Source of the DNA: a virus
Lineage: Duplodnaviria; Heunggongvirae; Uroviricota; Caudoviricetes
IMG/VR virus record: IMGVR_UViG_2721755660_000001
Reading direction: 5' to 3' (one strand)
Length of the DNA stretch: 64,000 nucleotides
A program made the position numbers. Below, piece by piece: positions 24,001 to 27,000 of the stretch (position 1 is its first letter; every line of letters starts with the position of its first letter).

Positions 24001-27000
24001 CCGCCACCTCTGATGTGTCTGGCATCCTCAACGCACCCGTACTTTATTTGTCATATGCTCCGCAAAATGCAGGTTGTCGTTGCAACCAATGCGGTAATTT
24101 TTTGTGTGCGAGTGCTCAAAAAACGTTGATTTTCATAAAAGGATGATTTTATGCTGCCAGACCAGCGACCAGCGACCAGCGACCAGCGACCAGCGACCAG
24201 CGACCAGCGACCAGCGACCAGCGACCAGCGACAGCGACCAGCGACCAGCGACCAGCGACCAGCGACCAGCGACCAGCGACCAGCGACCAGCGACCAGCGA
24301 CCAGCGACCAGCGACCAGCGACCAGCGACCAGCGACCAGCGACCAGCGACCAGCGACCAGCGACCAGCGACCAGCGACCAGCGACCAGCGACCAGCGACC
24401 AGCGACCAGCGACCAGCGACCAGCGACCAGCGACCAGCGACCAGCGACCAGCGACCAGCGACCAGCGACCAGCGACCAGCGACCAGCGACCAGCGACCAG
24501 CGACCAGCGACCAGCGACCAGCGACCAGCGACCAGCGACCAGCGACCAGCGACCAGCGACCAGCGACCAGCGACCAGCGACCAGCGACCAGCGACCAGCG
24601 ACCAGCGACCAGCGACCAGCGACCAGCGACCAGCGACCAGCGACCAGCGACCAGCGACCAGCGACCAGCAGTAAATCAAGAAAGTCTGTAAAATCTGTTG
24701 AGCCGGAAATTACCGAACTGGCGAACTCATGGCTTAAATCTTACAGGCTTGATTACAAGTTGCAGAATGCATCACTTAACGGAGAGATCGATAACGCACT
24801 GGACGCTTATTTTTCGAAAAATGGCGGCGCAGGCGGTAATCGTCCCGACGTAAAACTCCTTGTTAAGGACAAATACGGCAAGCAGTATCCCGTTCTCATC
24901 GAGTATAAAGGCTACAAGGACAGGCTTATCAGACTTGGCAGCAACGGTATTATTGAGAACAAAGATGCCAGAAAAGAATGGAATTTTAAAAATATTAATG
25001 GATACGCGGTGAATGGCGCAGTCCATTATGCCAACGCACTTCTTCAGTTCACCAATTACCCTGATATTATTGCTATTGGTATGACCGGCTGGCGCGATGA
25101 TGGTACAGGCGAACTGCATCATGAAATCGGCGTGTGGTACGTATCAAAGAATAATTTAGGAGCCGGACAGAAGGTTGGTGAATTCACCGACTTATCGTTC
25201 CTTGCTGACAAAAATGTTGATGGATTTCTCAACAAGATAAAGCTGCTTAATCTTCCTCCCGAAGAACTGGAAAAAATCAAGGCCAGCAAAGAGGAAGAGA
25301 TAGACACGCGACTTTCCCGTCTGAATAACGATATTTACCAGAATGAAAAGGGGCTTGGTGAAAGCGATCGTGTTTACCTTGTTGTGGCTACCGTTATTGC
25401 AACGTTGGGGATTCCGGGAAAGTTAGCACCGCTGGATAAAAAAGAACTGACCTCTTCAACGGAGGAGGACTTGCGTGATGGTGATATTATTTTCAGGAAA
25501 ATAAGGAATTTTTTAAGGCTGAAAGCTGTTCCTGAAACAAAAAGAGAAATGATTTTGCGCTCGTTGCAAAATACGCTGTGGACTGAAAACATTAACAAAC
25601 CAGTCAACGGTGAAAGCCAGTTAAAGCGCGTGTTTGTTAAAGTTGTTGATGATCTTGGGGAGTATTACAAAATTGGACTGACCACCGATTTTACGGGCAA
25701 ACTGTTTAATGAGATGTATCGCTGGCTTGGATTTACGCAGGACAAGCTCAATGACGTCGTTCTGACACCACCTTATGTTGCCACATTGCTGGCACGACTC
25801 GCCAGAGTAAACAAAGATTCCTATGTGTGGGATTTTGCTACAGGTTCTGCGGGATTGCTTGTGGCTGCAATGAATGAAATGCTCATTGACGCCAGAGAAA
25901 ATATTCACTCACCGAACGAACTACAACTTAAGGAAGCGCAAATCAAGGCTGAACAGCTTCTTGGCCTTGAGGTGTTATCCAGTATTTATATGCTGGCCAT
26001 CCTGAATATGATTTTGATGGGGGATGGTAGCTCGAATATCCTCAATAAAGACTCGCTGGCCGATTTTGACGGCAAGTATGGATTTGGGAAAACAGGAGAA
26101 AAATTCCCTGCGGACGCATTTATTCTCAATCCTCCGTATTCAGCTAAAGGTAACGGCATGATTTTCGTGCAGAAGGCGCTGTCGATGATGGATAAAGGCT
26201 ATGCTGCAGTGATTATCCAGAGTTCAGCTGGCACAGGAAAGGCTACGGAGTACAACAAAAAAATACTCAAGGAAAATACCTTGCTGGCAAGCATCAAAAT
26301 GCCTGCGGATCTGTTTATTGGTAAATCAAGCGTTCAGACGTACATTTACGTTTTTCAGGTAAAAATTCCGCATAACGCGAAACAGGCTGTTAAGTTTATC
26401 GACTTTTCCAATGACGGCTACGCTCGCTCTAATCGCAAAAAGGCAAGAAACAATCTTGTTGATGCCGATCGTGCAAAAGAGCGTTATCAGGAGGTTGTGG
26501 ATCTGGTTCACTTCGGGAAAGGTTGCCTTAATATCTTTACGGAGGATGAATATTTTGAGGGAACAATCGATCCTGATAGTGGTGAGGACTGGAATCAGAC
26601 CAGGCCAGTAGATGCTAGGCCAACGCTGGAGGATTTCAAAAAGACGGTAGGTGATTACCTTGCATGGGAGGTCTCGCAATTACTGAAAAAACAAGGTGAA
26701 AACAATTTTGCGGGAAAGTAAATTCCCCGCTCAGCGATAAATTAAGAAGCGTTGAGTGGGGAGAGTTCAGGATTGGCGATTTGTTCTATGTGAGCACAGG
26801 CTCGCTTATCTCCTCAGGAAGATTAAAACCAGGCAAAATCAAACGTGTTTCAGCAAAGAGCGATCAAAACGGTATCATCGGAGAGTTTGATACCGAGTTT
26901 ATGGATGATGCAAGGCATTATGAAAATTTTATAAGCGTTAATTTTTTTGGAGATGCTTTTTATCATCCTTATTGTGCCAGCGTAGAAATGAAGGTGCATG

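Follow-up and report, generated by a model that had tools for sequence, protein, structure and literature searches.

Can a temperate phage of Escherichia coli carry, at the front of a restriction-modification (R-M) gene, a repeat that turns the gene on and off? The question is raised by a 64,000-nucleotide stretch of viral DNA (Caudoviricetes; IMG/VR record IMGVR_UViG_2721755660_000001), which we call the window. Here about 73 tandem copies of the heptanucleotide GACCAGC stand between a start codon and the body of a gene for a BcgI-like R-M subunit. A preliminary description of the window had read this arrangement as a slipped-strand phase-variation switch. Comparison with other genomes supports that design and its frame logic: the tract varies from 16 to 120 units, each of the three frame states is represented and the enzyme body is always intact. 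We consider it likely, judging from sequence comparison, that the tract is a slipped-strand contingency switch in the 5′ coding region of the BcgI-like subunit.

The repeat tract, its frames and its start codon

The following features at the 5′ end of the gene are needed for the argument.

24140..24143, + strand: Shine–Dalgarno (SD) sequence AGGA, 7 nt 5′ of ATG 24151; every allele examined has it (30 genomes, viral contigs)
24143..24146, + strand: ATG 24143 with the overlapping TGA 24144..24146, a second start in another frame; the TGA shuts the third frame
24151..26721, + strand: subunit A of the BcgI-like R-M enzyme, an N-terminal nuclease plus N6-adenine methyltransferase, repeat leader included (open reading frame and homology)
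24160..24669, + strand: heptanucleotide tract, (GACCAGC)10 GACAGC (GACCAGC)62, which encodes (DQRPATS)n
24230..24235, + strand: 6-bp unit GACAGC, with one C lost (direct reading of the sequence)
24694..24759, + strand: conserved N-terminal segment SVEPEITELANSWLKSYRLDYK, first helix of the nuclease domain (N-termini of 120 homologues, AF2)

Tandem Repeats Finder reports the tract with a period of 7, 73.0 copies, 99% matches and the consensus GACCAGC. Direct reading resolves it into 72 perfect units and the one 6-bp unit, which agrees with the composition first described, and with 72 perfect tandem copies chance is no concern. All six frames of the tract are free of stop codons, and its three forward frames hold one set of seven codons. 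Whatever the frame, the leader peptide is thus (DQRPATS)n, three units making one heptad, and only the sequence after the tract differs between frames. In the window the open reading frame (ORF) 24151..26721 runs across the tract and gives 856 amino acids from the ATG, reading MLP(DQRPATS)n and then a 683-residue enzyme body; a leader of the (PATSDQR)n type had been foreseen should the tract be translated. A role as structured RNA was considered and dropped: an Rfam search gave no match inside the tract, and the tract RNA does not fold better than shuffled sequences (z = 0.73). Read on the opposite strand the tract is (GCTGGTC)n, in which every junction GCTGGTCG is a 7-of-8 match to the Chi site GCTGGTGG, and this near-Chi sequence is present more than 70 times beside the restriction gene (24160..24669, − strand).

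The start codon to which the body is joined depends on n, the number of units. The tract begins 9 nt after ATG 24151, and this ATG, which has a good SD, shares the frame of the body if n is divisible by 3. When n leaves a remainder of 1, the body is in frame with ATG 24143 and GTG 24104, for which the SD spacing is unusable; when it leaves a remainder of 2, the body frame is shut by TGA 24144..24146 and has no start codon. The rule is valid for all three variants of the junction (AGT, GACCGT and none). ATG 24151 had been taken for the sole upstream ATG. This is wrong, as ATG 24143 stands 8 nt further upstream in another frame. This second ATG is not conserved, since it is ATA in the ‘deer 48’ allele; one database protein (P0010) begins there, with MILCCQTSDQR.

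That the present tract length holds the ORF open is correct insofar as the frame is open through the tract, but in this assembly it is the 6-bp unit GACAGC alone that joins the body to the frame of ATG 24151. With 73 clean units the window would fall into the n = 1 mod 3 class, with its body out of frame with that ATG. Across our comparison set of 30 complete E. coli genomes carrying the locus, the tract irregularities are all deletions, with zero substitutions. Five of the 30 assemblies are irregular, four of these by a GACAGC unit or other single-base losses: the GACAGC unit occurs in three assemblies, the G1/2 tract has two single-base losses and the E110019 tract has lost 4 nt. This deletion-only pattern suggests consensus errors. 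The window's 6-bp unit may be a long-read sequencing error, and the ON state of the window is therefore not trustworthy without a check of the reads.

Such single-base deletions in long-read tracts, along with short-read contigs that break at or collapse the tract, could be taken to mean that the whole tract is an artefact of assembly or sequencing. We give this idea almost no credence: 30 complete genomes, each independent of the others, have the same tract at the same position, as do a deposited phage genome and numerous viral contigs. That the tract exists is thereby settled, and doubt is confined to the exact unit count and the 6-bp unit.

How would a switch of this kind work? Slipped-strand mispairing or unequal exchange alters the number of units in a repeat, and loops of more than about 4 nt evade MutS-dependent repair. 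At this locus replication slippage or unequal exchange would alter n far faster than point mutation, with 7-nt loops that should be poor substrates of MutS-dependent repair. Translation would proceed from ATG 24151 through Met-Leu-Pro and (GACCAGC)n into the nuclease-methyltransferase body only if n is a multiple of 3. At n = 1 mod 3, ribosomes from ATG 24151 would end at a TAA directly 3′ of the tract and the body would lie only in the frame of ATG 24143; because that ATG lacks a proper SD, expression would probably be weak or absent. At n = 2 mod 3 the gene should be fully off, since TGA 24144 shuts the body frame and there is no start. The value of n would then gate production of the full-length R-M subunit, with enzyme and methylation levels following, and termination just 3′ of the tract together with polarity would probably lower the specificity (S) subunit, encoded next downstream, as well. 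Because of the fast change of n and the poor repair of loops, lysogen lineages would be expected to drift between R-M-on and R-M-off. Switching would be frequent and reversible within a clone, so that lysogen populations would mix restricting and methylating cells with non-restricting cells, and the benefit would be bet-hedging in defence against other phages and DNA, or epigenetic heterogeneity. The leader, of 37 to 280 residues with a proline in each heptad, is probably disordered and dispensable; its dispensability is suggested by natural alleles with 0–3 units.

Is the tract inside the coding sequence at all? Its coding status is the crux, because the RefSeq/PGAP start of the methyltransferase gene is TTG 24760, 3′ of the tract. 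If that start were used, the enzyme would be constitutive, and the tract would be just a leader, translated or untranslated, which might do no more than tune expression through its length. In most genomes PGAP annotates one and the same 653-aa product (WP_001178557.1) regardless of tract length, and the body is intact in every frame state. Ribosomes on the leader ORF terminate 69–86 nt before the TTG, where reinitiation is possible, and there may be weak internal initiation or reinitiation at the downstream start. This explanation nevertheless strikes us as improbable. TTG 24760 has no SD at normal spacing, and a start there removes 30 residues. Among these is the segment 24694..24759, which lies 3′ of the tract and 5′ of the TTG. 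Its columns are near-invariant in the homologue alignment, and in the AF2 model it forms helix 11–24 within the nuclease domain, with pLDDT above 90, a helix that the RefSeq start would delete. There is no in-frame ATG, GTG or TTG between the tract and this segment.

Homologues that have no repeat point the same way. About 90 of the 120 that were retrieved are repeat-less; they come from Neisseria, Providencia, Methylophilaceae and metagenomes, have 72% identity over 98–100% of the query, and begin with Met plus 2–12 residues, followed by [SI][IV]EPNI-ADLANGWLKSY-LDYKLEQ. A closer repeat-less orthologue (86% identity), directly 3′ of Q in another lambdoid phage, starts at ATGCTGCCAAATCAGCGACCAACA with a strong GGGAGG SD. 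It reads GGGAGGAAATTCAT-ATG CTG CCA AAT CAG CGA CCA ACA AAT AAA TCA AGA AAG and shares the ATGCTGCCA start with the window. Another allele, in a DnaB-Q-hok-R-M context, has ATGCTGCCA GACCAGC GACCAGC GACCAAT AAATCC, and in a more distant repeat-less relative (72% identity; L170 752..800) an ATG precedes (AACAGCC)x3 where E. coli has its tract. Because short and repeat-less orthologues share the ATGCTGCCA start, upstream of the tract position, we take ATG 24151 to be the native start and the tract to be an expansion of codons 4–8. PGAP itself calls the long ORF straight through the tract in strain 04-00955. The homologue N-termini and the repeat-less ATGCTGCCA orthologue thus support the original placement of the tract in the 5′ coding region of the R-M gene.

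The extreme N-terminus of this enzyme family seems, from its sequences, to be prone to short repeats. A Neisseria homologue (P0097) has (KSN)x3 in its N-terminal tail. On the other strand, RefSeq/PGAP annotates an ORF antisense to the tract (24149..24679, −) as a ‘YXWGXW repeat-containing protein’ or a hypothetical protein, with a strain-specific length.

Copy number, frame states and selection across genomes

The preliminary description had proposed to look for the same gene with other repeat numbers in other genomes, and these were found. The carriers include enterohaemorrhagic E. coli (EHEC) of serotype O111:H8, the atypical enteropathogenic E. coli (EPEC) strain E110019, commensals and probiotic strains. 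Over the 30 genomes n ranges from 16 to 120, and the flanks differ by 0–1 single-nucleotide polymorphism (SNP) within sets of related strains. The lower values are 16, 23, 23, 30, 31, 50, 54, 56, 56 (+2 short units) and 58; the middle ones 64, 64, 64, 65, 66, 72 (+1), 76, 79, 80 and 82; and the upper ones 83 (four genomes), 88, 89, 91, 93 (+1), 99 and 120. Values of 9–34 in viral contigs derived from short reads were discounted because such assemblies collapse repeats. Four sets of related strains are informative.

G6/7, G8 and G1/2: n = 83, 99 and 91; flank with 0–1 mismatch in 3.7 kb
Three O111:H8 strains: n = 58, 56 and 83; flank with 0 mismatches in 3.7 kb
09-00049 and E2855: n = 72 plus one 6-bp unit, and 31; flank with 0 mismatches in 3.7 kb
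Three Okinawa bovine strains (OkiPb): n = 30, 23 and 23; flank with 0 mismatches in 2.7 kb

The first set comes from one study, and its relatedness was judged from identical flanks and near-identical chromosomal coordinates. Because n varies between near-invariant flanks, tract length changes orders of magnitude faster than point mutation. The changes between related strains often span many units at once (2 to 42). With respect to frame, 7 genomes have n mod 3 = 0, 9 have 1 and 14 have 2, which is close to the even three-way split expected of a freely drifting tract.

Could the tract then simply be a neutral or mildly harmful runaway variable-number tandem repeat (VNTR) in a prophage cargo gene, one that is off in most carriers and has no adaptive role? 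That 23 of the 30 assemblies are out of frame with the good start fits such an account, as do jumps of 2 to 42 units in place of single-unit steps and a leader which, given the natural alleles with 0–3 units, can be dispensed with. We find the idea unlikely. The enzyme body is intact (681–682 codons) in 30 of 30 genomes whatever the frame state, with no stop and no frameshift. The window allele and the E7-1N7 allele have 80% nucleotide identity, a synonymous divergence (dS) of 1.48 and a ratio of nonsynonymous to synonymous divergence (dN/dS) of 0.05; the ratio is 0.05–0.21 between alleles. These two deeply diverged alleles (dS ~1.5) bear the same pure tract at the same codon. It is present in Salmonella also, where the Salmonella enterica contig of a further allele starts with ...ACCAGC followed by AAATTAAGAAAGG; the assembly therefore broke at the tract. 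An even spread over the three frames is, moreover, also typical of reversible contingency loci such as neuO (PMC13001214). By analogy with such loci, a gene that stays intact and constrained although most sequenced isolates have it out of frame bears the signature of a reversible contingency locus. The locus combines a perfect repeat of non-3n unit length in the 5′ coding region, a polymorphic n with all frame classes, and a body under purifying selection.

Several points weigh against a contingency switch, in addition to the annotated downstream start and the initiation that may occur there. The same value of n, 83, is common to the ECOR13 phage PhiR12_3, O111 7-32 9A, UCPROB-002 and G6/7, which differ in origin and have flanks within 2 SNPs of each other; this reflects either the recent spread of one phage or a tract that is stabler than assumed, and the tract can evidently stay the same for a while. 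The ON frame is found in only 7 of the 30 genomes, and two of these seven, window included, rely on a 6-bp unit that resembles a long-read deletion error. A promoter scan between hok and ATG 24151 found no convincing promoter; the R-M gene may be transcribed mainly from the late promoter controlled by Q, and its role in the lysogen would then be doubtful. BcgI-type enzymes readily cleave unmodified DNA, and for this reason a flip from OFF to ON in an unmethylated cell should be costly.

Repeats of the same heptamer occur elsewhere. In the viral contigs (GACCAGC)n is found at further loci too (L025/L030/L036 and L029), which were dropped because no long ORF follows the repeat. Among the matches listed, (GACCAGC)n with n ≥ 5 occurs at at least dozens of sites in the Planctomycetota metagenome-assembled genome JALHRW01 and at several in Marichromatium bheemlicum; this looks like a genome-wide microsatellite unrelated to the E. 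coli locus.

The enzyme and its prophage setting

What would the tract be switching? The relevant features are these.

24844..24909, + strand: nuclease motif PD...(E)YK (P59 D60 ... E78 Y79 K80 of the body), invariant in 50 homologues
25831..25854, + strand: methyltransferase motif I, DFATGSAG, invariant in 50 homologues, in the N6_Mtase domain
26128..26139, + strand: methyltransferase motif IV, NPPY (N487 P488 P489 Y490), invariant in 50 homologues
26781..27875, + strand: S subunit with two target-recognition domains (Pfam Methylase_S in two stretches; PADLOC Specificity_II)

That this is a prophage R-M gene, as first stated, was confirmed by the N6_Mtase body, the adjoining Methylase_S ORF and the lambdoid setting. 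The PADLOC model ‘Type IIG restriction enzyme-methyltransferase’ covers the entire body (E = 3e-232), which also matches Pfam N6_Mtase and, weakly, VRR_NUC, and ORF 26781..27875 matches the PADLOC ‘Type II specificity subunit’. A sequence search against solved structures gave no match. RefSeq names the product as a Type I HsdM, an identity that we rejected: the HsdM equivalog TIGR00497 scores 36 bits against a cut-off of 242.75, the nuclease is fused at the N-terminus, and the cassette has no hsdR or helicase-type R gene, its neighbours being hok/sok and tRNAs. Given the failed equivalog model and the lack of hsdR, ‘HsdM family’ is a domain-level label only. With a PD-(D/E)XK nuclease and an N6-adenine methyltransferase fused in one subunit, a separate S subunit and no HsdR, the gene pair is, by the architecture of its sequence, a BcgI-like Type IIB/IIG system.

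A further possibility was that the S gene has decayed, since in the source strain RefSeq marks it as a pseudogene. In its DNA it does not differ from an allele annotated as intact elsewhere, and the flag is therefore a difference of annotation. In the centre of the S gene (27198..27249) a 24-bp repeat, IEELEAAH-like, has two copies here and three in strain SCU-104 (L016). In Type I enzymes such as EcoR124I/II a change of this kind alters the length of the spacer in the recognition site.

The cassette is part of a lambdoid prophage, with the following features around it.

23196..23621, + strand: antiterminator Q gene (Pfam Phage_antitermQ, E=9e-48; RefSeq CDS)
23652..23976, + strand: hok/sok toxin-antitoxin module, between Q and the R-M cassette (Rfam sok RF01794 and Hok/Gef CDS)
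27941..27970, + strand: terminator-like hairpin and T run just 3′ of the S gene (consensus match only)
28414..28490, + strand: phage tRNA-Arg(UCG), the exact decoder of CGA (ARAGORN)

The gene order is cI/Cro-like repressors, helicase, primase, NinG/H, Q, hok/sok, the R-M pair, the hairpin, three tRNAs, holin and lysozyme. In a megablast comparison positions 3406..23573, which make up the early half of the prophage, are 96–97% identical to Stx2a-converting phages (e.g. Stx2_EC3734 and VT2phi_272). Because this identity ends within Q, at 23573, the hok/sok and R-M cassette takes the position that stx has in the sibling phages. The cassette has a G+C content of 35–45%, against about 50% in its flanks. 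The same locus is present at 99.9% identity in the deposited genome of PhiR12_3. The sok match scores 118 bits (23652..23826) and the Hok/Gef CDS (23821..23976) was mapped from RefSeq. Linkage of hok/sok (window 23640..24047) to the R-M cassette is seen in the deeply diverged window-type and E7-1N7-type (hokD) alleles and in L179; L177 has Q and then the R-M gene directly, with hok/sok absent.

The codon content of the leader is unusual. Positions 24151..24669 contain 25 CGA codons in 173 (145 per 1000), one per heptad, whereas the window's other long ORFs have 4.2 per 1000, and the phage carries the tRNA that decodes CGA. This link may be a coincidence, because the same tRNA trio is found in Stx phages that lack the cassette. 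Just 5′ of the tRNAs RefSeq annotates a partial ‘site-specific DNA-methyltransferase’ pseudogene (~28177..28290).

The prophage also carries a LexA-like repressor, and a far more speculative role for the tract can be imagined, that of turning a temperate phage into a transmissible epigenetic and suicide timer. OFF lysogens would lose methylation, and a slip to ON would make a cleave-first BcgI-like enzyme in an unprotected cell; the double-strand breaks would set off the SOS response and induce a prophage with such a repressor. Slippage would thereby set a stochastic rate of induction or altruistic death, besides switching defence and the methylome of the host; the latter would amount to a phage-borne phasevarion in E. 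coli, in which a switching methyltransferase alters the expression of a group of host genes. Ribosomal frameshifting in the 0.5-kb, frame-neutral, CGA-rich leader could make the OFF state leaky and so modulate the effect. We think this very unlikely.

The window contains two further repeats. One, at 5825..5896, is a perfect repeat of a 9-bp unit in eight copies (GCTGCACTG); it is an in-frame VNTR that codes for (VQP)8 within a small ORF of the early region (5682..6089, −). At 44022..44618 a 243-bp unit x 2.5 with 98% matches encodes a collagen-like G-X-Y sequence, presumably of a tail fibre gene.

Related switches and the meaning of the locus

Does a contingency switch of this type have precedents? 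The nearest is neuO of the E. coli K1 prophage CUS-3, described as a ‘mobile contingency locus’ (Deszo et al. 2005, as quoted in PMC3046976 and PMC13001214). In neuO the heptanucleotide AAGACTC, in 2–93 copies, starts 2 nt after the ATG, encodes a heptad-repeat N-terminal extension and is ON when n is a multiple of 3 (PMC3046976, PMC13001214). The gene is OFF in 66% of 64 complete genomes (PMC13001214), and the length of the leader tunes NeuO activity (PMC3046976). In both loci a cargo gene of an E. coli prophage has a perfect heptanucleotide VNTR right after its start codon, both are ON at multiples of 3, and in both three units give one 7-residue heptad and hence a variable N-terminal extension. 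Both have long tracts (2–93 units in neuO, 16–120 here), with about two thirds or more of the genomes OFF. The present tract had been called unusually long; it is long, but the 2–93 units of neuO are a precedent (PMC3046976). Likewise, it is fair to say that such switches are not the norm in enterobacterial prophages, although neuO is a direct E. coli prophage example (PMC3046976).

The differences are also clear. AAGACTC, RLKTQDS and a capsule O-acetyltransferase are replaced here by GACCAGC, DQRPATS and an R-M enzyme. A heptanucleotide VNTR after the start of a prophage cargo gene is present at our locus, while homology to neuO or to AAGACTC is absent, making it an analogue and not a relative. 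CUS-3 is a different prophage from the Stx-phage-like lambdoid one studied here, with its cassette after Q. The tract stands 9 nt after its ATG in place of 2 nt, and a third state is possible through the second ATG, which lies in another frame. Switching and length-dependent activity were shown by experiment for neuO, whereas the present locus is known from the comparison of sequences.

As an enzyme, the system resembles BcgI and BsaXI: one subunit unites a PD-(D/E)XK nuclease, at its N-terminus, with an N6-adenine methyltransferase that has motif I and NPPY, specificity lies in a second, HsdS-like subunit with two recognition domains, and an HsdR motor is lacking. Enzymes of the BcgI class are further characterised by a requirement for AdoMet and by cleavage of both strands on either side of a bipartite site. 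A tblastn search matched the Staphylococcus aureus phage phi42 record X94423.1 at 28% identity over 97% of the protein. We take this relative to be Sau42I, the BcgI-like system of a converting phage (Dempsey et al. 2005). The two are alike as prophage-encoded BcgI-like R-M systems; they differ in that the S. aureus phage is a Gram-positive siphovirus and a distant relation, in which no repeat tract was seen. We know of no repeat tract in Sau42I.

R-M genes that vary in phase by repeats have been described from Haemophilus, Neisseria, Moraxella, Helicobacter and Campylobacter, where the units are shorter and the genes chromosomal (PMC7383803, PMC5909438, PMC4889913). In the Type III mod genes of Haemophilus, Neisseria and Moraxella, in Type I hsdM/hsdS (PMC7383803) and in the Type IIG gene cj0031 of Campylobacter jejuni (PMC4889913), a repeat in the coding region shifts the frame of a methyltransferase, as it does here. 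ON/OFF restriction and methylome switching are expected in those systems and, by analogy, would be expected here as well. The pathogen switches have mono- to pentanucleotide repeats of roughly 10–40 units on the chromosomes of species with many contingency loci; here, in contrast, a heptanucleotide tract of up to 0.85 kb rides on a temperate E. coli phage. Escherichia is not mentioned in the main text of a survey of repeats in Type I systems (PMC7383803), and three E. coli Type I systems have been described as non-phase-variable (PMC8287963). Our literature search found no paper on this locus, on the GACCAGC repeat or on the DQRPATS peptide. The comparison of sequences thus supports the view that the locus is an undescribed neuO-like switch on the BcgI-like R-M system of a Stx-phage-like E. 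coli prophage.

E. coli is usually held to be poor in repeat-driven contingency genes, with neuO as the textbook exception and, to our knowledge, the sole case known there. If the proposed switch is real, the present locus would be the second repeat-driven contingency locus in E. coli and the first there on an R-M enzyme. Standard annotation hides it, in that the gene is truncated and a spurious antisense ‘YXWGXW repeat’ protein is called. As annotation masks the switch and short-read assemblies break at or collapse the tract, such loci are probably under-counted. The tract is also a highly polymorphic marker for typing. Finally, if the locus switches, clonal lysogens would consist of restricting and non-restricting cells, which would affect susceptibility to phages, the uptake of plasmids and Stx phages, phage therapy and cloning. 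Methylated and unmethylated cells would likewise be mixed, and epigenetic regulation would be possible.

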